Source: an uncultured Bacilli bacterium (lineage in GTDB: Bacteria; Bacillota_I; Bacilli_A; RF39; UBA660). Taken from it: a DNA stretch of 59,492 nucleotides. Below the pieces are notes generated by a model that ran no database searches, was not told the DNA's origin, and worked only from the letters and a program-made list of their open reading frames with translations. The stretch covers positions 1 through 59,492 of the forward strand of contig CALVUM010000003.1 in the NCBI GenBank assembly GCA_944363605.1. The letters are read 5' to 3'. The first letter of the stretch is position 1. Each line of letters opens with the position of its first letter. The position numbers were made by a program, and so were the translations under genes. Shown here one piece after another: positions 6,766 to 59,492 of this stretch.

Positions 6766-8298
6766 TCAATTTTCAGCAAGCTTCTTCGGAATATCCAACC
6801 TCATAAAAATAGGTACTGGTTCTAAAACATAATATTCTTCATTTTCTAAATATCCAACATCTAAATTATTTGAAGCAATTTGTCTTAAAATTTCAGCCGA
6901 AGTATCAGGTAAATAGGGAGATAAGAAAATTGCACAATTTCTTATTCCTTCAAGCAAATTATAAAGTACCGTCTCTAACCGTTCTTTTTTCTCCTCTTCC
7001 TTAGCTAAACTCCATGGCATAGTGTCATCAATATATTTATTACTTGCTCGTAATGTTTCAAAAATTTCATCAATAGCAAGACCAATTTCCAACTTTGCCA
7101 TCTTTTTCTCTACCCGTTCTTCTAAAGAATTGATACTCTCTATATAAGAACTATCTACTTCATGAGATACAAATCGATTTAAAACTTTGCCATCAAAATA
7201 TTTATTGGCCATCGATATAGTTCGATTTACTAAATTTCCTAAAATATTAGCCAAATCACTATTAATTCGTTCCATAATAAGCTCATAAGTAATCGTACCA
7301 TCACTTGCAAAAGGAATTTCATGTAAAACATAATAACGAATCGCATCAACACCAAATAAATTTACCAAATCATCCGCATACATAATATTTCCTTTACTCT
7401 TACTCATCTTATCATTATTCATAAGTAACCAAGGATGTCCAAATACTTGTTTAGGTAACGGTAAATCCAAAGCCATCAATAAAATAGGCCAATAAATCGT
7501 ATGAAAACGAATAATATCTTTTCCAACTAAATGTAAATCAGCTGGCCACCATTTTTTAAACTCATCAGTTTGGTTATCTACGTCATAACCAATATTAGTA
7601 ATATAATTAGATAATGCATCTATCCAAACATACACAATATGCTTATCATTAAAAGGTACTTTTATTCCCCAGTCAAAAGCTGTTCTAGAAACACACAAAT
7701 CTTGTAAACCTGGTTTTAAAAAATTATTTAACATTTCATTTTTCCGTGATTCTGGTTGAATAAATTCTGGATGAGTTTCAATATACTCAATTAATTTGTC
7801 CTGATATTTAGACATTTTAAAGAAATAAGATTCCTCACTTTTCTTGGAAACTTCTCTACCACAGTCTGGGCACTTTCCATCCACTAACTGCGTATCTGTC
7901 CAAAAAGATTCACAAGGTGTACAATACCATCCCTCATATTTATCTAAATAAATATCTCCTTTTTCATATAACTTTTGAAAAATGTGTTGAACAACCAATT
8001 TATGATGTTCGTCTGTCGTCCGAACAAATTTATCATAACTAGTATTCATAACATCCCAAATCCGTTTTATTTCCCGGGAAATATTATCCACATATTCTTG
8101 AGGACTTAACCCAGCATCTAAGGCTTTTTGAGCAATTTTTTCACCATGTTCATCAGTTCCCGTTTGAAAATATACATCAAATCCTTTTAATCTTTTATAA
8201 CGAGCAATTGCATCAGCCAAAACAATTTCATAAGTATTACCAATATGAGGCTTTCCCGAAGCATAAGCTATTGCTGTTGTAATATAATATTTTTCCAT
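6766..8298 (-). CDS. metG: methionine--tRNA ligase (short form)
   Basis: 510 aa; HIGN (HIGH) motif, CPDCG zinc knuckle, KMSKSKGN (KMSKS) motif. Confidence 0.95.
   Translation of the reverse strand: MEKYYITTAIAYASGKPHIGNTYEIVLADAIARYKRLKGFDVYFQTGTDEHGEKIAQKALDAGLSPQEYVDNISREIKRIWDVMNTSYDKFVRTTDEHHKLVVQHIFQKLYEKGDIYLDKYEGWYCTPCESFWTDTQLVDGKCPDCGREVSKKSEESYFFKMSKYQDKLIEYIETHPEFIQPESRKNEMLNNFLKPGLQDLCVSRTAFDWGIKVPFNDKHIVYVWIDALSNYITNIGYDVDNQTDEFKKWWPADLHLVGKDIIRFHTIYWPILLMALDLPLPKQVFGHPWLLMNNDKMSKSKGNIMYADDLVNLFGVDAIRYYVLHEIPFASDGTITYELIMERINSDLANILGNLVNRTISMANKYFDGKVLNRFVSHEVDSSYIESINSLEERVEKKMAKLEIGLAIDEIFETLRASNKYIDDTMPWSLAKEEEKKERLETVLYNLLEGIRNCAIFLSPYLPDTSAEILRQIASNNLDVGYLENEEYYVLEPVPIFMRLDIPKKLAEN
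8068..8083. other. Noc-binding-site-like palindrome TATTTCCCGGGAAATA (inside metG)
   Basis: Perfect 16-bp palindrome containing the 14-bp B. subtilis NBS consensus ATTTCCCGGGAAAT; encodes ..NISREIK.. of MetG. Confidence 0.75.
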
Positions 8299-8334: not shown

Positions 8335-8356
8335 AATTATTTCCCGGGAAATAATT
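8335..8356. other. NBS-like palindrome (22 bp) in the metG leader
   Basis: AATTATTTCCCGGGAAATAATT, located between the T-box terminator U-run and the metG RBS. Confidence 0.75.
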
Positions 8357-8360
8357 AAAT

Positions 8361-8566
8361 AAAAAAATCATGAACATAAGGACGAGATTACACCCGTGGT
8401 ACCACCTTATTTCATGATTTTATCATGCACTTAATCGATAACGCCATAAAAGCGATTCAACTCCAGAGCCATCTTCTACAATAAACCTTTGTCTAATTTC
8501 AGCTACCTAGACTCTCTAAAAAAGGTTACATTATATACTCTTTCCTTCCCCGTTGATTAAGATTAT
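8361..8566 (-). promoter_or_regulatory. T-box leader (Met specifier) with terminator/antiterminator upstream of metG
   Basis: Minus-strand read shows AGAGAG...GGTAGCTGAAA stem I elements. A GAAGATGGC specifier loop has its ATG at 8470-8472. The T-box sequence GGTGGTACCACGGG lies at 8391-8406. It sits in the loop of a terminator stem (8366-8381 pairing with 8405-8420) followed by a U-run. Confidence 0.75.
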
Positions 8567-12957: not shown

Positions 12958-13668
12958 TCAATTCTTAAACAAATTTTGATAAGTCTCTAGTCCGCCTATA
13001 CATATAGGTGGTGCAATTTTACAACCAAATTTCCCATTTTTCACTAAAGTTACTAAAACAATAATTGGAGCTTGCTCTATTTTAGAATGAACAAACTGTA
13101 TTCTTTTAATACCTAAACCATATTGATAAGCATAAACCATAATTTCATCTAACCGATCAGGAACATGAACTAAAAAGAATCTTCCTTTGTCTTTTAACAA
13201 ATAACTTGCCATCCCAATTAATTCTTTTAAATTGATAGTTATCTCATGTCTTGCAATACTTTTTAAAGAATTTTGATTCACAAAATCAGGATTATGATAT
13301 TTAAAATAAGGTGGATTAGACAAAACAACATCAAAATTATTTCCCGGGAAATAATTTCCCAATTCCAAAACACTATCTTCAATAATGGAAACAGCATCTT
13401 CCATATCATTTTCTCTAATAGAATCTCTAGCTAAATCCGCAATTTCTTTTTGAATCTCCACTCCAATAATTTCTTTATGGTATTTATAATGTAACAAAAT
13501 AGGTATAACACCATTTCCAGTACACAAATCAATTATTTTCTCATCACTCTTACGAATCGTTGCATATTCAGCAAGTAAAATAGAGTCTAACGAAAATTTA
13601 AAACCATCTTCATATTGATAAATTTTTAAATTTGGATAATCAAACAACCAATTAAGCTGCTTCTTCAT
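12958..13668 (-). CDS. SAM-dependent N6-adenine methyltransferase, TrmN6/YabB-like
   Basis: 236 aa; DLCTGNG SAM motif and NPPYF catalytic motif; follows yaaT as yabB does in Bacillus. Confidence 0.7.
   Translation of the reverse strand: MKKQLNWLFDYPNLKIYQYEDGFKFSLDSILLAEYATIRKSDEKIIDLCTGNGVIPILLHYKYHKEIIGVEIQKEIADLARDSIRENDMEDAVSIIEDSVLELGNYFPGNNFDVVLSNPPYFKYHNPDFVNQNSLKSIARHEITINLKELIGMASYLLKDKGRFFLVHVPDRLDEIMVYAYQYGLGIKRIQFVHSKIEQAPIIVLVTLVKNGKFGCKIAPPICIGGLETYQNLFKN
13334..13357. other. NBS-like palindrome (24 bp) inside the methyltransferase gene
   Basis: AAATTATTTCCCGGGAAATAATTT; encodes ..NYFPGNNF.. Confidence 0.75.
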
Positions 13669-16848: not shown

Positions 16849-17154
16849 TTACATCAAACCATCTAACATTCCAGCATATTGTCCCATTTTTGACTGAAAT
16901 TCTTTATCAATTTTTTGAATAGCATCCTTAGTCGCTAATACAATAAAATCCTCTAATAACTCAATGTCTGAAGCATCTAACCCATCTTTTTCAATTTTGC
17001 ATCGAACCATTTCCTTTTTTCCATTTAATGTAACTTCGACAAACTCATATTTCCCGGGAAATAATTGAGCATTAATTTCCTCTTTCTTTTTTTGTAAATC
17101 TCTCTGCATTTTTTGAGCTTGAGCCATTATATTTTGCATATTCATTGTAAACAC
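16849..17154 (-). CDS. ybaB: nucleoid-associated protein YbaB/EbfC
   Basis: 101 aa; between dnaX and recR; MQKMQ..LQKKKEE... pattern. Confidence 0.88.
   Translation of the reverse strand: MFTMNMQNIMAQAQKMQRDLQKKKEEINAQLFPGKYEFVEVTLNGKKEMVRCKIEKDGLDASDIELLEDFIVLATKDAIQKIDKEFQSKMGQYAGMLDGLM
17048..17063. other. NBS-like palindrome (16 bp) inside ybaB
   Basis: TATTTCCCGGGAAATA; encodes ..LFPGKY.. Confidence 0.75.
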
Positions 17155-19287: not shown

Positions 19288-19305
19288 TTTTCCTCCATAA
19301 AAAAA

Positions 19306-19377
19306 GTGCACACAAACAGGGATTGACGTGGCTGCTATCTTCCGATCCTGACCAGATTACAATATATTTGTTGCACG
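19306..19377 (-). ncRNA. ffs: small SRP RNA (scRNA/ffs), short Firmicute/Mollicute-like form
   Basis: The minus strand reads GTGCAACAAA...CTGGTCAGGATCGGAAGATAGCAGCCAC...TTTGTGTGCAC. The middle matches the domain IV consensus GGUCAGGUCCGGAAGGAAGCAGCC, the termini base-pair, and a T-run follows. Adjacent to tadA/dnaX as scr is in B. subtilis. Confidence 0.6.
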
Positions 19378-19423
19378 TATAAAGAATAACAAAAAAAACT
19401 TAAACTTGCAACAAAAATTACAA

Positions 19424-19439
19424 TGTTTCACGTGAAACA
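19424..19439. other. parS site 1 (TGTTTCACGTGAAACA)
   Basis: Perfect 16-mer; embedded in a 32-bp perfect palindrome at 19416-19447. Confidence 0.85.
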
Positions 19440-19536
19440 TTGTAATTAAAAAGTTATATATTATCAACATACGCATAATAAAAAAATTTTAATTAAATCT
19501 TCTTAAAAATATCTAAAAACAAAGTTATACACTATA

Positions 19537-19552
19537 TGTTTCACGTGAAACA
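19537..19552. other. parS site 2
   Basis: Perfect 16-mer; embedded in a 28-bp palindrome at 19531-19558. Confidence 0.85.
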
Positions 19553-19565
19553 TATAGTTACAAAC

Positions 19566-19587
19566 AATTATTTCCCGGGAAATAATT
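19566..19587. other. NBS-like palindrome (22 bp) inside the parS array
   Basis: AATTATTTCCCGGGAAATAATT; the 16-bp core starts 16 nt after parS site 2. Confidence 0.75.
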
Positions 19588-19793
19588 TTATATTTAATTT
19601 ATTTATGATTAATTTTTTGCTTTTATTAATCTAAATACGTTTTATAATAGATTTTAAAGACAATTAATTATTAAAAACAAACAAATAGTAATATTTAAAA
19701 AATTAAGATTTAACAACCTAGTATATAAAGTAAAATATACAAGATCCTAGTTTTTTTCATAAATTAAATGTATATATTTTTATAAAAATTCAA

Positions 19794-19809
19794 TGTTTCA
19801 CGTGAAACA
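19794..19809. other. parS site 3
   Basis: Perfect 16-mer; 18-bp palindrome at 19793-19810; followed by TTATCCACT (19812-19820). Confidence 0.85.
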
Positions 19810-19989
19810 TGTTATCCACTTGAAATAACAAAATATTAAATTTTAAAATATATTTGAAATAAAATGACAATAATAGCAAACATATACATTTTTTATTACA
19901 GTAATTCTAAAATATTTTATGAAATTAAATTAATTTTAATAATTTCTTTTAAAATAAAGATAAATATTAACTGAAAAATAGACTATCTA

Positions 19990-20005
19990 TGTTTCACGTG
20001 AAACA
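19990..20005. other. parS site 4
   Basis: Perfect 16-mer; 24-bp palindrome at 19986-20009. Confidence 0.85.
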
Positions 20006-20152
20006 TAGAGTTACGAACAATACTTTTAGAGAATTACCAATTTAAAAGTAGTTAGAAAAAAGTTGATTATTTTAAATTAATAAATTATTTTTTTTGAGAT
20101 TAAAAGAGTAATTATTAAAGCTATTTTACATTTTATAATAATTTAACAACAA

Positions 20153-20168
20153 TGTTTCACGTGAAACA
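20153..20168. other. parS site 5
   Basis: Perfect 16-mer; 26-bp palindrome at 20148-20173; overlapped by TTATTCACA (20172-20180). Confidence 0.85.
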
Positions 20169-20364
20169 TTGTTATTCACAACGTTGCATTATTAAAATAA
20201 GAAAAATTTTATAAATAAAAACGCTTTGAAGTGTTAGATCATAAGAGTAGTATCAAAATAATGAAAGAAGCAAAATTATAAACTTTTGAATTAATCAAAA
20301 TATCTATTAAAAACAACAAGTCATTTCTACAAATATTTAAAAAACAAAAAATTATCTTTATTTA

Positions 20365-20380
20365 TGTTTCACGTGAAACA
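20365..20380. other. parS site 6
   Basis: Perfect 16-mer; 20-bp palindrome at 20363-20382. Confidence 0.85.
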
Positions 20381-20425
20381 TAGGTTATAAACATTTAAAA
20401 AAATCACTTACAAAAAAAATAGCAA

Positions 20426-20441
20426 TGTTTCACGTGAAACA
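20426..20441. other. parS site 7
   Basis: Perfect 16-mer; 28-bp palindrome at 20420-20447; 17 bp from the gyrA stop codon. Confidence 0.85.
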
Positions 20442-26008: not shown

Positions 26009-26470
26009 CTACATAACAGTTTTTTTTGCAGTTTTTCGCCCTCTTAAAGCACTTTCTAACCGAGTTGCTCGAAGAACTTGATTATCAATAATTCCATAAG
26101 AGGTTTTAACCGCAATTTTTATTCCATTTTGAAAAACAATAAACATAATATCTCCATCACGGTAATAGGATTTAATATATTTTAACCGAATCCAATTACT
26201 ATTTTCTCTTGTATTAGAAGTTGGAAAAAAAATAATTTCTTTAGATTCTTCTACAATAATAGGTGCCTTATAATTAACACCTATCATTGACTCAGTTCCT
26301 TTTCGTCTTCCATCAAGTGAACTTCCAAAATATCGACAGCTATCTTCCATAATTTTATTAGAAGGTTGTTCAATGATATAATGATCATTAAGCTCATATA
26401 CCTCCGAATAATTCTTATCAATAGATAAAATTGCTAAAGTTTCATCATTAATTTCATACTGCGTCTGCAT
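26009..26470 (-). CDS. comK: competence transcription factor ComK family
   Basis: 153 aa; YEINDETLAIL, DSCRYFGSSLDGRRKGT, KAPIIVEE, IIFFPTSNTR, NW, FQNG...SYGIIDNQVLRATRL align block by block with B. subtilis ComK (recalled). Confidence 0.8.
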   Translation of the reverse strand: MQTQYEINDETLAILSIDKNYSEVYELNDHYIIEQPSNKIMEDSCRYFGSSLDGRRKGTESMIGVNYKAPIIVEESKEIIFFPTSNTRENSNWIRLKYIKSYYRDGDIMFIVFQNGIKIAVKTSYGIIDNQVLRATRLESALRGRKTAKKTVM

Positions 26471-31759: not shown

Positions 31760-31783
31760 TAATTATTTCCCGGGAAATAATTA
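31760..31783. other. NBS-like palindrome (24 bp) between jag and mnmE
   Basis: TAATTATTTCCCGGGAAATAATTA, in the intergenic region just after the jag stop codon and a T-run. Confidence 0.75.
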
Positions 31784-33201: not shown

Positions 33202-35067
33202 ATGGAATACGAAATTATAGTCGTAGGTGGCGGTCATGCCGGAATAGAAGCATCCCATATTTCAAGTTTTAAAGGACATAAAACACTTTTAATAACTATA
33301 AATAAAAAAAATATTGGGGACATGCCTTGTAATCCATCAATTGGTGGTACAGCAAAAGGAATTATTGTACGGGAAATCGATGCTTTAGGAGGATTAATGG
33401 GTCAAATCGCAGACGAATCACATTTTCAAATCAAAATGCTTAATAACTCGAAAGGACCAGCAGTTCGTTCCCTAAGAGCACAAGCAGATAAAATAACATA
33501 TCCTAAAAATATGCAAAAAACTTTAGAAAACATGCCGAATCTGGATATTTTAGAAGGAACTGTCGAAGACCTAATTATAGAAAACAAAAAAGTAAAAGGC
33601 GTAGTATTAGAAAACGGCGAAAAAATTTATGCCCAATCTGTAATTTTAACAACAGGAACATATCTAAAAGCAAATGTATTAATTGGAAGTGAAAATACAC
33701 CATCAGGTCCTCATGGCGAAAAAAGAAGTAATCATTTAAGTGATAATTTAAAAAAATATGGTTTTACAATACAAAGATTAAAAACAGGTACTCCTCAAAG
33801 AATTAAAGCAGATTCCATTGATTTTTCAAAAATGCAACCAGAATATGGGGATGACAAATATTGGACTTTTTCTTTTGATAAAAAACCATCTTATAAAATA
33901 AATGAACAACAAAAATGTTTTCTAATCTATACAAATGAAAACACCCATAAAGTGATTTTAGATAACTTAGATAAATCAGCGATGTATGGGGGATTCGTAA
34001 CAGGCATAGGACCAAGATATTGTCCAAGCATTGAAGATAAATTAGTAAGATTTAAGGATAAAGAACGTCATCAATTATTTTTAGAACCAGAAAGCCTTTA
34101 TTATGATGAATGGTACTTGCAAGGCTTTTCCACATCCATGCCAAGAGATATTCAAGAGCTTATGGTTCATAGTCTAAGTGGTTTAGAAAATGCAGTTATC
34201 TCAAAATATGCTTATGCTATAGAATATGATGCTATCGATCCACTACAAATCACGCCTTCTTTAGAATCAAAAGTAATCGAAGGTATTTTTACAGCAGGTC
34301 AAATTAATGGAACAAGTGGTTATGAAGAAGCAGCAGGTCAAGGCCTAATCGCAGGTATCAATGCTTCATTGAAACTAGAACAAAAAGAACCACTAATTTT
34401 AAAAAGAAATGATGCTTACATAGGTGTTTTAATTGATGATTTAATAACAAAAGGTACAGCTGAACCATATCGTATGTTAACATCGCGTGCGGAATTTCGC
34501 TTAATTCTCCGTCATGACAATGCGGATTTAAGATTAAGAGATTATGCTCATCAAGTTGGAAGTATTACAGAACAACAATATAAAAATTATCAAGAACGAT
34601 TACAAAAAATTCAAGAAGGCGAAAAATATTTACAAGAAACAAAATTAAAAATCACACCAGAAATTAAAGAAATATTTGCCAAAAATCAAAAAGAAATTCC
34701 AAATATAACAGATAGTTTATACAATTTATTAAAAAGACCCGAAATCACAATCGAATTTTTAGAAAAAATAATCGAAATCCCTATGGATAATCAAACAAAA
34801 GAAGAATTAGAAATTCAAATAAAATACGAAGGATATATAAAAAAAACGTATAAAGAAGTAGAAAAAATGAAAAAACTAGAAGAAAAAATGATTCCAAAAG
34901 ATATTGATTATCAAAAAGTCAAAAACTTAGCTTCTGAAGCACGTCAAAAATTAGAAAAAGTAAGACCAATATCTCTCGGACAAGCAGCAAGAATTAGTGG
35001 AGTAAATCCATCAGATATTTCTATTTTAAGTGTTTATTTAAAGAAAGAGTATGGAAAAGATGAATAA
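33202..35067 (+). CDS. mnmG: tRNA uridine 5-carboxymethylaminomethyl modification enzyme MnmG
   Basis: VVGGGHAG FAD motif, GPRYCPSIEDK, AGQINGTSGYEEAA; start at the ATG at 33202 after AGGTGAG. Confidence 0.96.
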   Translation: MEYEIIVVGGGHAGIEASHISSFKGHKTLLITINKKNIGDMPCNPSIGGTAKGIIVREIDALGGLMGQIADESHFQIKMLNNSKGPAVRSLRAQADKITYPKNMQKTLENMPNLDILEGTVEDLIIENKKVKGVVLENGEKIYAQSVILTTGTYLKANVLIGSENTPSGPHGEKRSNHLSDNLKKYGFTIQRLKTGTPQRIKADSIDFSKMQPEYGDDKYWTFSFDKKPSYKINEQQKCFLIYTNENTHKVILDNLDKSAMYGGFVTGIGPRYCPSIEDKLVRFKDKERHQLFLEPESLYYDEWYLQGFSTSMPRDIQELMVHSLSGLENAVISKYAYAIEYDAIDPLQITPSLESKVIEGIFTAGQINGTSGYEEAAGQGLIAGINASLKLEQKEPLILKRNDAYIGVLIDDLITKGTAEPYRMLTSRAEFRLILRHDNADLRLRDYAHQVGSITEQQYKNYQERLQKIQEGEKYLQETKLKITPEIKEIFAKNQKEIPNITDSLYNLLKRPEITIEFLEKIIEIPMDNQTKEELEIQIKYEGYIKKTYKEVEKMKKLEEKMIPKDIDYQKVKNLASEARQKLEKVRPISLGQAARISGVNPSDISILSVYLKKEYGKDE

Positions 35068-35764
35068 AGAAGAATTTTTAAAAGAAACTCAAAAATTAAA
35101 TATAAAAGTGACTGATACAATGCTTTTTCAATTAGAAACATATGCTGACTTTTTGTTAAAATATAATGAGCATACAAATCTCACAGCTATAAAAACCAAA
35201 GAAGAAGTTTATTTAAAACACTTTTATGATTCTTTAACCCTAATAAAAATTGAAAATTTAGAAGAAGGAAGCTTATTAGATGTCGGAACAGGTGCCGGTT
35301 TTCCAGGGTTAGTTTTAGCCATAGTTTTTCCAAATTTAAAAGTAACACTACTAGATAGTAATAACAAAAAAATTACCTTTTTAAAAGAATGTATTAAAAA
35401 GCTTAACTTAAAAAATGTCGAAACAGTGTATAGTAGAGCGGAAGATTATACTCGAGTCCATCGTGAAGAATATGACTTTGTCACATCAAGAGCAGTCGCA
35501 GATTTAAGAATCTTATTAGAATTAAATATTCCAGCTTTAAAAATAAAAGGGCATTTCCTAGTCATGAAAGGAAATGTAAATGAAGAATTAGAAAAAGCTA
35601 AGCAAACCATGAGGATATTATCTTCAAAAATTATGAAACAAGAAATTTTTGAACTTCCAAATCAAGGCGGTTTAAGAACACTTGTGAATATTGAAAAAGA
35701 AGAGTCTACTGATTTAAAATATCCAAGAACATATGACAAAATAAAAAAGAAAGAAATTAGTTAA
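35051..35764 (+). CDS. rsmG: 16S rRNA (guanine527-N7)-methyltransferase RsmG
   Basis: 237 aa; NLTAI, DVGTGAGFPG, SRAVA motifs; follows mnmG. Confidence 0.93.
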   Translation: MEKMNKEEFLKETQKLNIKVTDTMLFQLETYADFLLKYNEHTNLTAIKTKEEVYLKHFYDSLTLIKIENLEEGSLLDVGTGAGFPGLVLAIVFPNLKVTLLDSNNKKITFLKECIKKLNLKNVETVYSRAEDYTRVHREEYDFVTSRAVADLRILLELNIPALKIKGHFLVMKGNVNEELEKAKQTMRILSSKIMKQEIFELPNQGGLRTLVNIEKEESTDLKYPRTYDKIKKKEIS

Positions 35765-35766
35765 AA

Positions 35767-36243
35767 ATGTCTAAAGTAAGTAATATTTTAACAATGTTGG
35801 AACTTCTAAGTAGTGGAAGAAAATATAATATTCAAGAATTAGCTGAACAACTAGAGGTATCTAAGCGAATGATTCGCGTTTACAAAGAAGAATTAGAAAA
35901 ATCTGGAATTTATCTAGATAGTATTAAAGGACCACATGGCGGATACGTTTTAAATCAACAAATTCATGTACCAAGAAGATTTATTAATCAAGCCCCAATA
36001 TATATAGAAGGAAATGAAAAATTTAATAAATTAAGCCAAGCAATCAAAACAAGAAAAAAAGTCTTAATTGAATATTATCAAAAAGACTTTAAAAGTACCT
36101 CTAAAAGAATTATTGAACCATATGATTTATTGGTTTTAAATTATGAATGGGGTGTCGCAGCATATTGTGAATTAAAAAAAGAAATTCGTCATTTTTACTT
36201 AAATAGAATAAAAGAACTTCAAATTTTAGAAGAAAAATATTAA
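35767..36243 (+). CDS. short HTH plus WYL-domain transcriptional regulator
   Basis: 158 aa. The N-terminal winged HTH (ILTMLELLSSGRKYNIQELAEQLEVSKRMIRVYKEEL) is YafY/DeoR-like. The C-terminal KKVLIEYY...RIIEPYDLLVLNYEWGVAAYC...IRHFYLNRI matches the WYL domain pattern. Starts 2 nt after the rsmG stop. Confidence 0.65.
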   Translation: MSKVSNILTMLELLSSGRKYNIQELAEQLEVSKRMIRVYKEELEKSGIYLDSIKGPHGGYVLNQQIHVPRRFINQAPIYIEGNEKFNKLSQAIKTRKKVLIEYYQKDFKSTSKRIIEPYDLLVLNYEWGVAAYCELKKEIRHFYLNRIKELQILEEKY

Positions 36244-36301
36244 GTGACAGATATATTGCCACTTTTTTTGTTATATTCTTTTTGAAAGAAGGAAAGAGAA
36301 A

Positions 36302-37327
36302 ATGACAAACAATTTACATAAGTACACAGAACCAGCAGAGAAAAATTTTACAAAATTAGAAGAAAGAATAATGGAAATAAATCAGCCAGATAATGAAGCT
36401 TTAAAAAATTTTCAAAACTTATTTACAAAATTAGCAAAAGATAAAGAACCGGTTTTAATAATAGCCACAGGAGGTTCAAAAGTAGTTGCTTATTTTTTAA
36501 AAAACATTTTAGAAAAAAGACAAGTTATTACAGAAGTAATTGAACCAAGAGATTATTTTTATAAGCTAAATACTCAATGCTTTAAAAAATCAATCATTAT
36601 CTCCGCAAGTGGAAAAACAAATGGGCTAAATTCAATAATAAATAAAAGAAAACCAGAGTTAGGATATGAAAATTATTTTATTTGCCAAAAAAAACAAGAA
36701 AAGGAAAATACAACGGTAATTTCTTGGGGACAAAATATTTCATTTCAAGAAAAAAGCTTTATTTCTTTAAGTACATCTTTAGGTCCTATGGCACTAATAT
36801 TAACGGCAGAAGAAAATGAAAAAGGAAATACTGAAATAAATCAGTTAATTAAAACATTATTAAAACAAGCAGAAGAGAAAATAGCAAAAATAAAAGTTGA
36901 TTTTTCTCATTCAAAAATTTTATCCATATTAAGTGGTTATGATACAGAAGTAGAGGAAGCAATTTTAGAATCAAATTTAACAGAGAGTGGTTGCATCGCT
37001 CCAGTTATTCATGATAAAGGTTCTTTTTGTCATGGCAGAAGTAATTTACTTCTTTTGGATCCTAAAAGTCCAATTATTTATCTCCAACATGAAGAAAAAG
37101 AATTAGATAAAATACTAAGAAATATCCTTCAAGAAGAACATCCAAATATCTGTACATTAGACACTTTCGATTTAAATGAAAATCAACTATGGAAAACTTA
37201 TTATCTATCATTGCAAGCCTATTATTTATCCTTAAAGATTGCCAAAGCAAAACAAATGGATTTAACTATGCCAGAATATAATCCAAAATTAATAAAAACC
37301 TTATATCCATATAAAGGAGAGATGTAA
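36302..37327 (+). CDS. double SIS-like (sugar-phosphate isomerase/binding fold) protein, function unknown
   Basis: 341 aa; IIATGGSKVVAYFL and IIISASGKTNG resemble SIS motifs; the second half has ...ESNLTESGCIA...SFCHGRS, similar to the SIS/PGI-PMI C-terminal half. Confidence 0.45.
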   Translation: MTNNLHKYTEPAEKNFTKLEERIMEINQPDNEALKNFQNLFTKLAKDKEPVLIIATGGSKVVAYFLKNILEKRQVITEVIEPRDYFYKLNTQCFKKSIIISASGKTNGLNSIINKRKPELGYENYFICQKKQEKENTTVISWGQNISFQEKSFISLSTSLGPMALILTAEENEKGNTEINQLIKTLLKQAEEKIAKIKVDFSHSKILSILSGYDTEVEEAILESNLTESGCIAPVIHDKGSFCHGRSNLLLLDPKSPIIYLQHEEKELDKILRNILQEEHPNICTLDTFDLNENQLWKTYYLSLQAYYLSLKIAKAKQMDLTMPEYNPKLIKTLYPYKGEM

Positions 37328-37328
37328 T

Positions 37329-37940
37329 ATGAATTTGTGTTTTGTGTCACATAATGATAAAAAGAATAATGAAATGAAAACATTTTTTAAAGAAAAATAT
37401 GCTACAGATATAGAAATTTATTGTTGTGAATTAGACGAAAAAGAAATAAGTGATGCGGATGTTATATCAAGAGAAAAAGCAATTCAAGCCTATAATCTTG
37501 TTAATAAACCTGTCTTTGTTATAGATAGTGCTTTTTATATTGAAGTTTTTGGTACTTTTCCAGGAACACTAGTAAGAAGAGCAAATATATCTGAAGATCT
37601 TGATTTCACCTTAAAATTAATGCAGAATATTAAAAATAGAAATTGTTGCTTTGTCGACTGCTTAACTTTTTTTGATGGAACAGAGTTCTATCAATTTTAT
37701 GGTTATTCAAAAGGAACATTAGCCTATGAACCAAGAGGAAAACTAGACGAATATTCTCGTTCTAAGTTGTGGCAAATCTTTATTCCCCAAAACTCTACCA
37801 AAACAATGGCTGAGATGACTTATAAAGAAAGAGTAGAGAGAAAAGATAATCACACATCTGCTAAAGCTCAATTTATGAAATGGTACACAGAAGAATACCA
37901 AACAAACTTAAAGCTTAATAAAAAATCAAAAAATTTTTAA
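37329..37940 (+). CDS. divergent Ham1/ITPase (RdgB)-family NTP pyrophosphatase-like protein
   Basis: 203 aa. Collinear with RdgB blocks: FVSHNDKK (ATGNxGK), REKAIQA...PVFVIDSAFYIEVFGTFPG (A..KA...P.l.DDSGL.V.AL.G.PG), PRG, KTMAEMTYKER (KT.AEL..EEK). Several catalytic-block residues are replaced. Confidence 0.5.
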   Translation: MNLCFVSHNDKKNNEMKTFFKEKYATDIEIYCCELDEKEISDADVISREKAIQAYNLVNKPVFVIDSAFYIEVFGTFPGTLVRRANISEDLDFTLKLMQNIKNRNCCFVDCLTFFDGTEFYQFYGYSKGTLAYEPRGKLDEYSRSKLWQIFIPQNSTKTMAEMTYKERVERKDNHTSAKAQFMKWYTEEYQTNLKLNKKSKNF

Positions 37941-37947
37941 ATACAGG

Positions 37948-37976
37948 TTGTCAATTTTTGGAATTATTGGTAAAAT
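37948..37976 (+). promoter_or_regulatory. sigma-A-like promoter of the noc-like gene
   Basis: TTGTCA (37948-37953), 17-nt spacer, TAAAAT (37971-37976); RBS AAGGGG lies 8-9 nt before the GTG at 38015. Confidence 0.5.
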
Positions 37977-38014
37977 GATATATAGATAAAATAGGCGGTA
38001 AGGGGCTGATTTTT

Positions 38015-39238
38015 GTGAATACAGAACAAAAGGTACTACAAGTAGCTATTGAAGATATAATACCTAACCGATTTCAACCACGTTTAGCATTTGATGAAGA
38101 AGGATTAAAAGAATTATCTGAATCAATTAAACAGCATGGAATTATTCAACCTTTAGTACTAAGAAGATTAGGGAATAAATATGAAATTATTGCTGGGGAA
38201 AGAAGATTTAAAGCGGCAACAATGGCTGGATTAAGACAAGTGCCTGCAATTATTTCCGATATTGATGATAATAAAAGTGCTGAAATTGCTTTAGTTGAAA
38301 ATATTCAAAGAAGAAATCTGACGCCTATCGAAGAAGCAAAATCTTACAAGAATCTTTTAGATCGAGGCTATATGACCCAAGAACAATTAGCAGAAAAAAT
38401 GGGAGTTAGCCAAAGTTCTATTGCCAACAAACTACGTCTTTTAAATCTAGCACCTGAGGTACAAGATGCTCTTTTACAAGAAAAAATAAGTGAAAGACAT
38501 GCCAGGAGTTTATTAGTTTTGCCTAAAGATGAACAAGCAGACTGGCTTCAAAAAATACTAACTAAACGTCTCACTGTTCGTCAATTAGATTTAGAAATAA
38601 AAAAATCAAAAGGCGAAGTAAATGAAGATGTTCCTTTAGTAAATATTTCCCCAGATGTAGATAAAATAATTAACAATGCTAGTGATATAAATCAAAAAGA
38701 ATCAACGAGAGAGGAAAAAAATATGGAATTTGAACAAAAAGATAATATTTCTGAGATAAAAGTAGAAGAACCAAAAAATATTCCGAATAAATTTTTTAAC
38801 TTTTTAGAAGATGAAGCTGCAAACATGCAAATGATTGAAACACCAACGCCTATTCAAAATAATAGTTCAATGAATGAAATTGAAGTTTTAGATGATTTAG
38901 GATCTTCATCTCCAGAAACTTCTAATAATTTACAACAAGAAGAAACCATTATGCCGTTTTTATTTTCAAACTCTCAAGTTCAAGAAAATAATAAAATAGA
39001 AGAAATAGAAGAAAAAACAACTGAAAAAATTGTGGATCCAATGGATTCAGTTATTAAATTAGATCCAAACTATCAACAAATGGTTGAAGAAGAAAAAGGA
39101 ATAGATTTAAAATCAGCCATTAACGAAGTCCGTGAATTAATTGAAAATATGAAAAAACAAGGATTTCAAATTTCTTTAGATGAGATAGATTTAAATGAAA
39201 ATTATCAAATGACAATTAATATTAAAAAAAATGATTAA
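38015..39238 (+). CDS. noc: ParB/Noc-family CTPase-type DNA-binding protein with Noc-type specificity residues and a long acidic insert
   Basis: 407 aa. IIPNRFQPR and GERRFKAA form the ParB N-domain/CTP motif. The HTH SQSSIANKLRLLNL...KISERHARSL matches B. subtilis Noc (GQSTIANKLRLLKL...KITERHARAL) rather than Spo0J (SRPHIANHLRLLTL...LSMGHGRTL). The C-terminus SAINEVRELIENMKKQGFQISLDEIDLNENYQMTINIKK resembles the Noc C-terminus. Sits at the canonical position after rsmG. Confidence 0.8.
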   Translation: MNTEQKVLQVAIEDIIPNRFQPRLAFDEEGLKELSESIKQHGIIQPLVLRRLGNKYEIIAGERRFKAATMAGLRQVPAIISDIDDNKSAEIALVENIQRRNLTPIEEAKSYKNLLDRGYMTQEQLAEKMGVSQSSIANKLRLLNLAPEVQDALLQEKISERHARSLLVLPKDEQADWLQKILTKRLTVRQLDLEIKKSKGEVNEDVPLVNISPDVDKIINNASDINQKESTREEKNMEFEQKDNISEIKVEEPKNIPNKFFNFLEDEAANMQMIETPTPIQNNSSMNEIEVLDDLGSSSPETSNNLQQEETIMPFLFSNSQVQENNKIEEIEEKTTEKIVDPMDSVIKLDPNYQQMVEEEKGIDLKSAINEVRELIENMKKQGFQISLDEIDLNENYQMTINIKKND

Positions 39239-52806: not shown

Positions 52807-52926
52807 AAAACTTAATAAAACGGCTTATCTTAATTTTTTCTTGCCTCTTAAAAAATATATGATATAATACTAAAGAAAGAAATTTCTATGTCAAAAAATT
52901 GACATGGCGAAAGGAGATTAGTTGTT

Positions 52927-56053: not shown

Positions 56054-56128
56054 TTTAGGTATTTCTTTTTTAAGCAAAAATATGGTATAATTGCTTACAG
56101 TAAACAGCAAAAGAAAAGAGTGTTTGAA

Positions 56129-56830
56129 ATGATAAAATTTATAGTGGTAGAAGACAACAAAACAATTCAAGAAAAGATTAAAAAATTATTAGTAAAAATA
56201 AGTATTAGCCTTAATCAAGATTATGAAGCTAAATATTTTGAAAAATATAATAAAGAGCTTCAACAAGAAATTAATGACCAGACACAAAGAAAAGTGTATA
56301 TTATGGATATTGAATTAGAAAACAGCATTAGTGGTATTGAAGTGGCTCAAAAAATAAGAGAAAATGATTGGGATAGCGAAATCATTTTTGTGACTAGTCA
56401 TGATAAAATGTTTGAAACTGTTCATAGAAATATACTTGAAGTATTTGATTTTATTGAAAAATTTCTAGATATGGATAAAAGATTAGAAGAAGATATTTTA
56501 AAAATAATAAATAAAAAATACGATAAGAAAATTCTAAAAATTAATGGAAATAATGTTGAATTAGAATTACATATGAAAAACATTTTATATATAGAAAAAG
56601 AAGATAAAAAGTGTATAATTCATGCATGCGATAATGAGTTTAAAACAAGTTTAACATTAGAAAAATTATTGGAACTACTAGATGAACGTTTTGTTAGAAC
56701 TCATAAAAGTTGTATTGCTAATAAAGATAGAATGGTAGAAAGAAACTATTCAAAAGGTTATTTCATATTAGATACAGGCGAAAAAGTAGAATTACTTTCA
56801 AAAAAATATAAGAAAGAGATTGAAAAATGA
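56129..56830 (+). CDS. LytTR-family response regulator (AgrA-like)
   Basis: Receiver domain (IVVEDN...MDIEL) plus C-terminal LytTR domain (...IHACDNEF......FVRTHKSCIAN); likely start at the ATG at 56129. Confidence 0.85.
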   Translation: MIKFIVVEDNKTIQEKIKKLLVKISISLNQDYEAKYFEKYNKELQQEINDQTQRKVYIMDIELENSISGIEVAQKIRENDWDSEIIFVTSHDKMFETVHRNILEVFDFIEKFLDMDKRLEEDILKIINKKYDKKILKINGNNVELELHMKNILYIEKEDKKCIIHACDNEFKTSLTLEKLLELLDERFVRTHKSCIANKDRMVERNYSKGYFILDTGEKVELLSKKYKKEIEK

Positions 56831-58080
56831 TACTTGAAATTATAATCTTAACTCTTCTTCAAATATCAATGATTGTTGCTGTTGAAGCATTTTCAGATCA
56901 AAAAATAAAAAACATAAAGTTATTGATTATAAGCATAATAATTTATGATTTGCTATATTATTATCTGCTTAAATATATTCCGGCAGAATTAAATACTATA
57001 GTTTCAATTTTATATACAACAATTCTTATTAAAATTCTACTTAAATTAAACAATAAAAATTTATTATTCTATATGATTATTATATGGATTTTAGGTATTA
57101 TGGTAGATATAGGAACAATGCTAGCTATGAATTTTACAAATGTGACTTCTAGGATAACAGATTTAAATAAAGATTTTTTTAAATCAATAAGTACAATAAT
57201 TATGATTACTTTTTATTTCGTATGTGCGCACAGTAAATACATAAAATCTAAAATATTAAAATTAAAAAGGTTTACTCAAAAAATAAACATTTCTTACTAT
57301 GTTTTTATAGCCTTATTAATCATATATTTTACTCTGGGCGCAGTGTGTTTAAATGAAATGAATAATATAGAAAGCATAATTTTTATTTTGTTTATAGCCA
57401 TAACCTGTTTTATTATCTTCATAATATTTATAGTACAGCAATTTCAAATAATTTCACTTAAGGAAAGTGTACATTTATTAGATAAAAATAGTGAATTCTA
57501 CATTAAATTGATAGATGAATATCGCATTTTAAAACATAATTTAATTGGAAATTTAAATGGTGTAAAAACAGTTGGAAATAAGAAAACAAAAATTTTAATT
57601 GATGATTTAATTAAAGAATATAGCTCTATTTTAAAATTGCCTAAAAATTTTAAGGAAATTCCAACAGGAATTAGTGGATTAATTTATGAAAAAATTTATT
57701 CAACAAATAATAAAGAACTAAAGATAAAAATTGAAAATAAATTAAAACATAATATCATAGAAGTGCTTACTGCAAGAAAATATAATCTTATTTGTGAAGC
57801 ATTAAGTGTGACATTAGATAATGCGTTAGAAGCAACAATAAAAAGCAAAGAAAAAATAATATATTTAGAATTTATAGAAGATGAAGAAAATATATATTTT
57901 AAAATAATTAACACATTTACTGGAAATATCGACATAGACAAATTAGGTACAAAAAATTATACATCAAAGAAATATGGTCATGGTTTAGGATTATTTTCTA
58001 TTTTAATAAAAAAGGATATTACTTTGGCAACTTCTATAAAAGATAATAAATTTATAAATGTAGTTACAGTACAAAAATGA
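56827..58080 (+). CDS. AgrC-like membrane histidine kinase (GHKL, HPK10 type)
   Basis: 417 aa; about six N-terminal TM segments, H-box-like RILKHNLIGNL, N-box LDNALEA, G-box GHGLGL; ATGA overlap with the regulator stop. Confidence 0.85.
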   Translation: MILEIIILTLLQISMIVAVEAFSDQKIKNIKLLIISIIIYDLLYYYLLKYIPAELNTIVSILYTTILIKILLKLNNKNLLFYMIIIWILGIMVDIGTMLAMNFTNVTSRITDLNKDFFKSISTIIMITFYFVCAHSKYIKSKILKLKRFTQKINISYYVFIALLIIYFTLGAVCLNEMNNIESIIFILFIAITCFIIFIIFIVQQFQIISLKESVHLLDKNSEFYIKLIDEYRILKHNLIGNLNGVKTVGNKKTKILIDDLIKEYSSILKLPKNFKEIPTGISGLIYEKIYSTNNKELKIKIENKLKHNIIEVLTARKYNLICEALSVTLDNALEATIKSKEKIIYLEFIEDEENIYFKIINTFTGNIDIDKLGTKNYTSKKYGHGLGLFSILIKKDITLATSIKDNKFINVVTVQK

Positions 58081-58133
58081 TAAAATCTTAGAATATTAAA
58101 TAAAGTTTTATTTCTAAAAAATAGTCATAAAAA

Positions 58134-58163
58134 AACTCTCAAATTATTAAAATGAGAGTTTTT
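58134..58163. terminator. bidirectional rho-independent terminator
   Basis: AACTCTCA/TGAGAGTT stem flanked by an A-run and a T-run, between the kinase (+) and the agrD-like peptide gene (-). Confidence 0.75.
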
Positions 58164-58164
58164 C

Positions 58165-58278
58165 TTATAATAAATCTTTATCTGCTATAGGTTCATCCCA
58201 AAAGAACATTAAGCAAGCAGATGAAATTGATCTTGAAAAAAGATTTGCAATTCCAGATAACATATCTACGAAAAACAT
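58165..58278 (-). CDS. agrD: AgrD-like autoinducing peptide precursor (37 aa; not in the ORF track)
   Basis: Hand translation gives MFFVDMLSGIANLFSRSISSACLMFFWDEPIADKDLL. It has an amphipathic N-leader, Cys22 plus four residues (CLMFF), then an acidic DEP tail. AGGAAG RBS upstream; lies directly downstream of agrB. Confidence 0.75.
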   Translation of the reverse strand: MFFVDMLSGIANLFSRSISSACLMFFWDEPIADKDLL

Positions 58279-58322
58279 AGTACACTTCCTTTCTAGTAAT
58301 TTGTTTAAATTTATATAAAAGT

Positions 58323-58961
58323 TTAAACCATAGTTTTTTGAAAATTTTTATAATTATTAAATGTAGTACCAGTTATTTTATAAGTCAAAGGATTTATAGA
58401 AATACTTTCCATTAATAATGCATATATTATTGTATTGTTCAAAAGAACGTGAAAATCATAAATATACAAAACTAAATAAACTAATAAAAGAAATATGGAT
58501 AAAACTTTTGCTCTAACCCTTTTTTCTTTATGAATCAACGGTCTTGCAGGGGTATCTGCTGGAGCAAAAAGTAAAAATGAAAGAAAACCAAATATCCAAA
58601 TAATTACAGCAACTGAATTAGGTATTACAAGATATTTAATTAATAAACAACCACCTAAATATACAGGTAAAGTTGTTATCCAACATTGTAAACTTGTTTT
58701 AGCATGAAGTCCAAAACCGTAGAGTCGCATCGTAGAATATACAAAAGATAATAATAATAGTTCCAAAAACAAATTAAATAAAAGAGCTAGTATAAATAAT
58801 ACAATTGTTTTTGTTATGAAATTATAAAATGCTTCTAATCCATAACGCATCTTTTTTTCTTCTATAGTGCTAAGTTTTCTCTTTGATTTAATTAATTGTA
58901 TTGATTTTTCTATAAATCTTTTTTTCACACTACCACTACCCAACAGAAACAAGGATATCAT
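58323..58961 (-). CDS. agrB: AgrB-family propeptide-processing membrane protease
   Basis: 212 aa polytopic protein; RLYGFGLHAKTSLQCW contains the conserved AgrB His and Cys. Confidence 0.85.
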   Translation of the reverse strand: MISLFLLGSGSVKKRFIEKSIQLIKSKRKLSTIEEKKMRYGLEAFYNFITKTIVLFILALLFNLFLELLLLSFVYSTMRLYGFGLHAKTSLQCWITTLPVYLGGCLLIKYLVIPNSVAVIIWIFGFLSFLLFAPADTPARPLIHKEKRVRAKVLSIFLLLVYLVLYIYDFHVLLNNTIIYALLMESISINPLTYKITGTTFNNYKNFQKTMV

Positions 58962-59258
58962 AAAATGAAGAAAAAGATACGGTTTAAGATATTAAACGTT
59001 TAGTAATAAAAGTAAGATATAAAATTTACTACATTACCCTTCAAAAAAGTCATCTTACTGCCAAAAATGAGCATTTTGAGAAAAACTATAGATAGTTTAA
59101 AATGAAAAGCGTATAATCAACTTTATCGTGGTTTATGTGTTAAATTAAACAATTGGCCAATGCTGCAGAATTTGTCGATCAATTTTAATTGTAGTTTATA
59201 CATAGTCATGATAAAGTAGTACCAGAAGTAAAAAGTAATAGGAAGGGAGTGAACTTTG

Positions 59259-59474
59259 ATGTTAAGAGGAACTGTAAAATGGTTCAACAATACGAAAGGG
59301 TACGGATTTATCGAATATGGTGATTTAGAAGATATTTTTGTACATTATTCAGCAATAAGAAAAGACGGGTATAAGACATTAAAAGAAGGAAATATTGTTG
59401 ATTTTAAATTGATTGAAACTGCAAAAGGACTACAAGCTATCGATGTTGAAGAAGTATTATATACGGTTAATTAA
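59259..59474 (+). CDS. cspA: cold-shock protein CspA family
   Basis: [15 protein letters not shown] (RNP1) and VFVHYSAI (RNP2); preceded by about 290 nt of untranslated leader. Confidence 0.93.
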
Positions 59475-59492
59475 CACATAAGCTACTAAAAC

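Follow-up and report, generated by a model that had tools for sequence, protein, structure and literature searches.

A probable variant of Noc and mixed parS/NBS arrays near the replication origin in an uncultured lineage of gut Bacilli

In Bacillus and Staphylococcus, the Noc-binding sites (NBS) are scattered over the chromosome (about 70 in the 4.2 Mb of B. subtilis) and are absent near the terminus, and the N-terminal helix of Noc, which is switched by cytidine triphosphate (CTP), ties this DNA to the membrane and prevents the division ring from forming over the nucleoid. This amphipathic helix is reported to be conserved in every Noc examined and needed for function, and the residues F5, F8, F9, K2 and R7 are required for both membrane binding and function (PMC4331003, PMC8429893). 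Here, we analysed a stretch of 59,492 nt (the window), which is an entire NCBI contig of 28.8% G+C from an uncultured organism, with the focus on its ParB-family gene at 38015-39238. This gene probably encodes the Noc of its lineage on a variant plan, which would load at a composite array of parS and NBS sites close to the origin, with a separate ParB encoded elsewhere.

Compared with Noc (YyaA of B. subtilis and Noc of Geobacillus thermoleovorans; TIGR04285), the protein has the same core of ParB_N and HTH_ParB domains with PNRFQPR, GERR and ENxQR, the same Q173/K179/R201-type readers (specificity positions are numbered as in Caulobacter ParB), the ERHAR motif and a Noc-type C-terminal domain. 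The genome holds the identical 16-bp NBS, and the gene lies 3' of rsmG. In contrast to Noc, for which both elements are reported to be general and required (PMC4331003, PMC8429893), the variant has neither the N-terminal amphipathic helix nor the alpha-2 segment, and it carries an acidic disordered linker of 140 to more than 300 residues with a [KR]FF motif. K184 is replaced by N, S, T or A, K171 often by V, I or L, and the profile score is under the curated cutoff. Moreover, its sites cluster very strongly in an array close to the origin that also holds parS, and no soj-spo0J follows the gene. With ParB/Spo0J (B. subtilis, T. thermophilus Spo0J and Caulobacter ParB), the protein shares the fold, the CTP-clamp motifs, 45-51% identity over the core and an origin-proximal array of sites like that of a centromere, but it has Q instead of R at 173 and R instead of G at 201, no LG(R/K)GL peptide, a C-terminal domain of another type and no adjacent parA.

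Identity, predicted specificity and plan of the protein

An earlier note on this DNA had read the protein as Noc-type rather than ParB-type, and the profile and structure searches agreed. The top NCBIfam model was nucleoid_noc (TIGR04285, 281.8 bits), and the closest solved structures were those of Noc (7ng0/7nfu, 5e-56), followed by Spo0J (1vz0, 1e-50). The C-terminal domain, also called Noc-like in the note, matched in isolation: the last 78 residues (330-407) alone aligned to positions 185-255 of TIGR04285 with an E-value of 1.5e-5, and the Noc model was the sole meaningful and the best match of this domain. One distant member of the family is named 'nucleoid occlusion protein' in NCBI. The CTP-binding motifs GERRxR and ENxQR are kept, with Lys in place of the third Arg of GERRxR.

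The specificity residues Q133, K139, N144 and R161, which had been noted earlier, held up both by their positions and in alignments with Noc and ParB. Q173 reads adenine 1 and R201 reads cytosine 6 of NBS, a single Lys, at either 179 or 184, suffices for NBS reading, and parS recognition takes R173 together with a small residue (G/S/T/C) at 201 (PMC7383237, Jalal et al. 2020). Among 160,000 variants, all parS-specific ones retain R173, the combination of Q173 and R201 is the signature of NBS-specific ones, and those with dual specificity mostly have T or S at 201 (PMC7383237). The protein has Q133, K139 and R161, with N144 in place of K184; at the two positions that matter for parS it carries Q133 and R161 instead of R173 and a small residue. 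Since Q173, R201 and K179 are present and R173 is absent, the QKNR protein is predicted to read NBS and not parS, a call derived from the main-text rules of PMC7383237 on the Caulobacter ParB scaffold and not from a listed variant. The QKNR combination is invariant among 43 GTDB loci with one orthologue each. About 135 of the 150 clusters represented had Q-K-x-R; of these, 100 have QKNR and the others mostly S, T or A at x.

In 12 of the 150 representatives (including P0176, P0202, P0203, P0231, P0247, P0155 and P0233), the recognition helix is rewritten, e.g., GISVSSLRSKLALLNL, with V, E or L at position 173, while the architecture including KFFNxLEDE is intact. This suggests that some sublineages or paralogues have changed in DNA specificity.

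The N-terminus of the protein is short. The block IPNRFQPR begins at residue 16 and is preceded by 15 residues, even fewer than the 17 of the earlier note, and the median distance from the start to PNRFQPR was 16 residues in the 150 representatives. An in-frame TGA at 37976-37978, read directly, lies 13 codons 5' of the start and overlaps the end of a promoter-like site, which makes an N-terminal extension impossible; an upstream start that would restore the helix, which the earlier note had named as a possible refutation, was thereby ruled out. Homologues keep the start MNTEQK, and the longer gene calls in some of them merely translate the region of the ribosome-binding site. No [KR][FL]F was present in the first 16 residues of any of 415 family proteins, and the N-terminal amphipathic membrane helix was absent from the variant and from all 415. 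Likewise, the ParA-stimulating peptide LG-K/R-GL was not found at the N-terminus MNTEQKVLQV, whereas the Spo0J proteins of the clostridial outgroups (L045-L054) have GLGKGL. The protein therefore lacks both N-terminal effector elements, as had been claimed.

At least 150 clusters at ≤50% identity, which were obtained by an exhaustive HMMER search that covered 1.84 billion cluster representatives, share this plan: the N-terminus is short, the specificity residues are Q-K-x-R, the linker is long and acidic, and the C-terminal domain is of the Noc type. The proteins are mostly 340-690 residues long in the 150 representatives. This architectural family is large and undescribed. The 43 GTDB species representatives with an orthologue are metagenome-assembled genomes (MAGs) of uncultured Bacilli or 'Tenericutes' and Candidatus Ventrenecus, from the gut of chicken, rabbit, mouse, human and ruminants. 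The lineage is known solely as such MAGs plus Clostridium sp. CAG:628, and the NCBI taxonomy gives 'Candidatus Ventrenecus' no placement.

The linker (a 141-residue slice, residues 200-340) has a net charge of -21, is disordered in the AlphaFold2 model and, searched alone against profiles, matched no family. It holds short conserved islands, the strongest of which, PNKFFNFLEDEAANM, does not vary between orthologues that are 71-90% identical, while its flanks cannot be aligned. The core [KR][FY]F occurred in the linkers of 44 of 90 full-length representatives, compared to 1.9 expected from shuffled linkers. AlphaFold2 placed a lone helix at residues 260-270 amid the disorder, with low confidence at the motif (pLDDT ~50). 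The motif KFFNFLEDE resembles RFFGLGEKE of the B. subtilis Noc N-terminus, and its hydrophobic moment was 0.45-0.60 compared to 0.43 for the B. subtilis Noc helix. It probably supplies an effector contact, either as a relocated weak membrane anchor or by docking of a partner protein.

parS and NBS sites near the origin

The perfect parS array that the earlier note had seen near the gene is present in the window (Table 1). There are seven perfect parS, compared to 0.09 expected, and six perfect NBS 16-mers, compared to 0.44 expected at ≤3 mismatches. The array itself is rich in parS, with seven copies and one NBS, and four further NBS lie in the adjoining 11 kb. In eight GTDB relatives, a perfect NBS lies 4-8 kb 5' of the Noc-variant gene. 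The NBS of the jag-mnmE spacer is also found in CAG:628-type genomes (Clostridium sp. CAG:628), in which the Noc variant is only ~40-50% identical, and the NBS copies of relatives were either perfect or absent. This conservation agrees with the prediction that the protein reads NBS.

Such mixed arrays are common in related metagenomes. A scan of Joint Genome Institute (JGI) metagenomes for parS followed by NBS within 5-35 nt gave at least 120 contigs (loci L087-L206), almost all of 19-31% G+C. The 120 contigs listed contain 390 perfect parS and 286 perfect NBS, which typically alternate; in one contig, an NBS follows each of five parS after 28 bp. The array lies between gyrA and tadA-(SRP RNA)-dnaX-(ybaB)-recR in 116 of the 120, the same place as in the window, and at least three parS occupy this position in L043, a distant member from GTDB. 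The density of NBS was 2.8 per kb inside the arrays, 0.08 on the tadA side, 0.02 on the gyrA side and 0.01 around the noc gene, figures that carry an ascertainment bias, since the loci were chosen for at least one adjacent parS-NBS pair, and the value for the arrays is inflated by it. The excess in the arrays persisted after the removal of one NBS per locus. In addition, the strict DnaA box TTATCCACA was eight-fold denser in the mixed arrays than in the flanks and tended to abut the sites, at fixed offsets of -10/+17 from the parS start and -12/+19 from the NBS start. The idea of the earlier note that a re-purposed Noc works at the centromere received some support, in an unexpected form, from the interleaving of NBS with parS in origin-proximal arrays across the lineage, but the protein is predicted to act via NBS, not parS.

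Some further features of the sites were observed. A DnaA box as an obligatory spacer element between parS and NBS was ruled out, since only 14 of 176 distinct spacers contained it. The start-to-start offsets from parS to NBS were bimodal (~25-29 and 35-38 bp, with peaks at ~27 and ~36) with almost none at 31-32 bp, which could reflect helical phasing or simply inherited repeat units; the copies are not independent. In the window, the parS copies have palindromic extensions of 8, 6, 1, 4, 5, 2 and 6 bp beyond the 16-mer; the longest palindrome is a perfect one of 32 bp, and the probability of an extension of ≥4 bp at random is ~0.008. The covarying flanks suggest a potential for hairpins or cruciforms, or an origin of the copies that generates palindromes. 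Further DnaA boxes abut window sites at 19811-19818 and 20172-20180. Two of the array contigs (L145 and L200) have Bacteroidota-like genes of 38-48% G+C joined to an AT-rich array-tadA-dnaX segment and look like chimeric assemblies.

The reader of parS and the alternatives

As the earlier note stated, no ParB-family gene other than this one occupies the ancestral noc-soj-spo0J position, and this holds lineage-wide, not in this genome alone. The Soj and Spo0J hidden Markov models (HMMs) used in the searches were built from proteins of the clostridial outgroups. No KGGxGK Walker A motif occurred in the six frames of the window, no open reading frame (ORF) of the window matched the Soj HMM at E≤1, and neither a regular expression nor HMMs found a second ParB-family gene in the window among ORFs of ≥40 residues, in agreement with the reported absence of ParA. 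No ParA or ParB was found in the 10 kb beyond the left end of the window (L060). In the clostridial outgroups (L045-L054), a noc-like gene (QKKR) is followed by soj and spo0J (R..G) with flanking parS. The comparison shows that the ancestral rsmG-noc-soj-spo0J cluster lost soj-spo0J across the lineage, in which genes of other kinds come after the Noc variant. The outgroup paralogue shares QK(K)R, a short N-terminus without the canonical membrane helix and the Noc-type C-terminal domain with the variant; however, it has ~260-290 residues, no long linker or FF motif, and lies beside soj and a canonical spo0J.

Two loci with other gene orders were observed beside these. In the rearranged genome L032, the one locus where rpsF-ssb-rpsR, an S. 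aureus-like ParB location, lies 5' of the Noc-variant gene, no ParB was found. In L043 (9986-21611), the order is noc - SDR - dnaA - dnaN - recF - gyrB - gyrA - parS array, and the place of noc close 5' of dnaA resembles that of parB in streptococci.

Several findings weigh against a Noc variant accompanied by a ParB. The score of 281.8 lies below the curated TIGR04285 cutoff of 315, and because this cutoff is missed and the N-terminal helix is missing, the protein was filed as a variant of Noc and not as a plain member. A neighbor-joining tree of the core gave no firm grouping with Bacillus Noc, and core identity was 52% to Geobacillus Noc compared to 48-51% to some ParBs. The tree, which did not decide between grouping with Bacillus Noc and with ParB, was rejected as a basis for identity, and the signature residues, the C-terminal domain and the sites were used. 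Furthermore, the conserved DNA-contact Lys171 is replaced by Val (GVSQS). The linker motif is acidic, not basic, and followed by acidic residues in a protein with a net charge of -25, which is unfavorable for binding to an anionic membrane; the helix modeled there is of the low confidence given above, and some sublineages, such as the 387-residue CAG:628 type, do not have the motif. Finally, ~1.06 Mb of noc-centred and strain loci contained no Soj (E≤1) and one Noc-variant gene per locus, and 0.72 Mb of array-centred loci gave no match to the Soj or Spo0J HMMs. This ~1.8 Mb represents the origin-proximal ~50-70 kb of each genome. As no ParB was present in it, we infer a ParB elsewhere from the sites and from precedent.

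The two palindromes are each perfect across a deep lineage, and a symmetric parS variant (TGTTCCACGTGGAACA) in one locus preserves the palindrome, which speaks for two readers, both dimeric. A relocated ParB has precedent: Streptococcaceae show a dislocated ORI gene cluster (PMC8136486), and ParA is missing from the ParB-parS systems of S. aureus and S. pneumoniae (PMC12479847). Like the lineage studied here, these two species are Firmicutes with a broken ancestral ORI cluster that have lost Soj; their ParB is mainly an SMC loader, and S. aureus also retains Noc. They differ in that their canonical ParB gene is known and their parS are dispersed near the origin, whereas here parS is arrayed with NBS and the surveyed DNA contained no ParB. 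A ParA-less system, which the earlier note would have counted as something new, has therefore been described already (PMC12479847). It is likely that the reader of parS is a separate ParB, most simply a canonical one, encoded outside the origin cluster.

The earlier note had set a canonical ParB elsewhere beside a single protein that serves both palindromes, and the former is more probable. In the latter case there would be no canonical ParB, and the Noc variant would nucleate on both palindromes as a ParA-less, single-protein organizer of the origin. That would fit a sole ParB-family gene in ~1.8 Mb of origin-region DNA of the lineage, the loss of soj-spo0J from the ancestral place in all relatives examined, the adjoining of parS and NBS in the same arrays, and the departures from canonical Noc at K171 (V) and K184 (N). 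It is nevertheless highly improbable, since R173, which all parS-specific variants of the 160,000-variant scan keep, is absent, the protein carries the NBS-specific signature Q173 and R201 where dual binders mostly have T or S at 201, and one type of site should suffice for one reader, yet two palindromes are kept perfect; besides, the survey is limited to the origin-proximal 50-70 kb per genome. The lack of a ParB in all surveyed DNA would also be met if the reader of parS were an unrelated protein or one that has diverged strongly, or if parS were a decaying relic, and the Noc variant read NBS only, and the rewritten helices in 12 of 150 representatives indicate that specificity does drift. 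We consider this very unlikely. Relics would decay, but parS is perfect and multiple (seven in the window and 390 in the 120 loci), R201 is retained in the rewritten helices while position 173 varies, unlike in a conserved parS reader, and no protein but ParB is known to read the parS 16-mer. Should complete genomes contain no canonical ParB, the array of parS, NBS and DnaA boxes would be organized by the Noc variant alone, which would either read both palindromes or work with a non-ParB reader of parS, and through its linker motif the origin would be linked with the membrane, the divisome or DnaA. This outcome is improbable; if true, a re-purposed Noc would be the basis of a centromere that has neither ParA nor ParB.

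The protein could instead be an ordinary Noc that works in nucleoid occlusion chromosome-wide, with the internal motif in the role of the N-terminal helix and the origin array as an incidental feature. The density of NBS outside the arrays, 0.01-0.02 per kb, is similar to that of B. subtilis. The motif and the B. subtilis Noc helix also have comparable hydrophobic moments, and the Noc N-terminus can be functionally replaced by a heterologous amphipathic helix (PMC4331003). We regard this as unlikely, because NBS are 150- to 300-fold denser in the parS arrays, whose position is conserved lineage-wide, the motif is acidic in a strongly acidic linker, and it is missing from some sublineages.

For the Noc variant beside a separate ParB, the following mechanism is proposed. 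By analogy with the family, dimers of the variant would nucleate on TATTTCCCGGGAAATA and, once CTP is bound, close to form clamps that slide and spread, and a nucleoprotein complex would be built in this way. NBS are packed with perfect parS, often beside DnaA boxes, in the gyrA-tadA array next to oriC, and because of this concentration the main loading zone would be the origin-proximal centromere region; the scattered NBS may also nucleate the protein. Its linker motif would make the effector contact, as a membrane anchor or by docking a partner. A separate ParB encoded outside the ancestral cluster would read parS, possibly without ParA as in S. aureus, and its clamps on neighboring parS would coexist with those of the Noc variant. 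Speculatively, the complex might tether or mark the origin region or modulate DnaA at the adjacent boxes. The last role would echo S. aureus Noc, which restrains replication initiation (PMC5540599, PMC12479847).

In this very large uncultured lineage of gut Bacilli, the NBS reader is kept, the helix is dropped, and an acidic linker with a motif of its own is added, and NBS are packed beside parS, often with DnaA boxes, near the origin. If the proposed reading is true, Noc works here at the centromere and the origin beside ParB and not chromosome-wide. The lineage would then be a natural system for the study of two paralogous CTP clamps that share one loading zone and of the movement of effector peptides within ParB-family proteins, and for asking whether the S. 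aureus-type link of Noc to replication initiation is ancient. The location or loss of ParB in the lineage becomes a sharply defined question.

Features of the window

The coordinates of the features are collected in Table 1.

Table 1. Features of the window discussed in the text (positions in the 59,492-nt stretch)
Feature	Position	Strand	Remarks
Noc-variant gene	38015..39238	+	407 aa; GTG start; stop codon 39236-39238
ParB_N (CTP-binding) domain, residues 6-98	38030..38308	+	Pfam; contains PNRFQPR, GERRFK, ENIQRR
HTH_ParB DNA-binding domain, residues 101-199	38315..38611	+	Pfam; holds Q133, K139, N144, R161
Long acidic linker, residues 200-340	38612..39034	+	predicted disordered (AlphaFold2)
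Linker motif PNKFFNFLEDEAANM, residues 257-271	38783..38827	+	consensus [NG][KR]FFN[FL]LE[DE]E
Noc-type C-terminal dimerisation domain, residues 341-407	39035..39235	+	TIGR04285 match
Promoter-like site TTGTCA-17-TAAAAT, TG-extended	37948..37976	+	consensus match alone
Ribosome-binding site GGTAAGGGG	37997..38005	+	9 nt 5' of GTG start; read directly
Array of seven perfect parS (TGTTTCACGTGAAACA) and one NBS	19424..20441	.	NBS at 19569-19584; between gyrA and signal recognition particle (SRP) RNA/tadA
Perfect NBS TATTTCCCGGGAAATA	8068..8083	.	directly followed by DnaA box TTATCCACA at 8084-8092
Perfect NBS	8338..8353	.	between T-box leader and start codon of class-I tRNA-synthetase gene
Perfect NBS	13338..13353	.	
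Perfect NBS	17048..17063	.	inside ybaB coding sequence
Perfect NBS	31764..31779	.	jag-mnmE spacer
rsmG	35051..35764	+	ancestral 5' neighbor of noc; Pfam GidB in relatives
Three-gene insert	35767..37940	+	lineage-specific; WYL regulator, 341-aa protein without family match, Ham1-like NTP pyrophosphatase
T-box leader	8375-8559	-	before class-I tRNA-synthetase gene (tRNA-synt_1/1g matches)
SRP RNA	19290-19387	-	beside parS array
L31 ribosomal leader	52886-52916	+	

The three-gene insert that the earlier note had placed between rsmG and the ParB-family gene was found with the contents given in Table 1. It is absent in distant relatives (L081-L086), in which the Noc variant directly follows rsmG. 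A reading of the insert as a defense system was rejected, since the matches with defense models were only generic WYL ones. A convergent XRE gene and then a gene for a 651-residue protein lie 3' of the Noc-variant gene; the latter protein, a putative surface protein in the earlier note, had no Pfam match.

Judged from its genes for SpoIIR, SpoIID, SpoVG, YabP and a Peptidase_U57 (YabG-type) protease, the organism of the window is a spore-former. In the origin cluster, dnaN and recF flank a ComK-family gene (26009-26470, minus strand), as they do in distant relatives. An agr-like locus with AgrB, a histidine kinase and a LytTR regulator is located at ~56120-58961. At the right end of the window (~58961-59492), all independent assemblies that carry the terminal agrB-like gene break ~300 bp past it, which suggests that a repeat lies there, for instance an insertion sequence or an rRNA operon.

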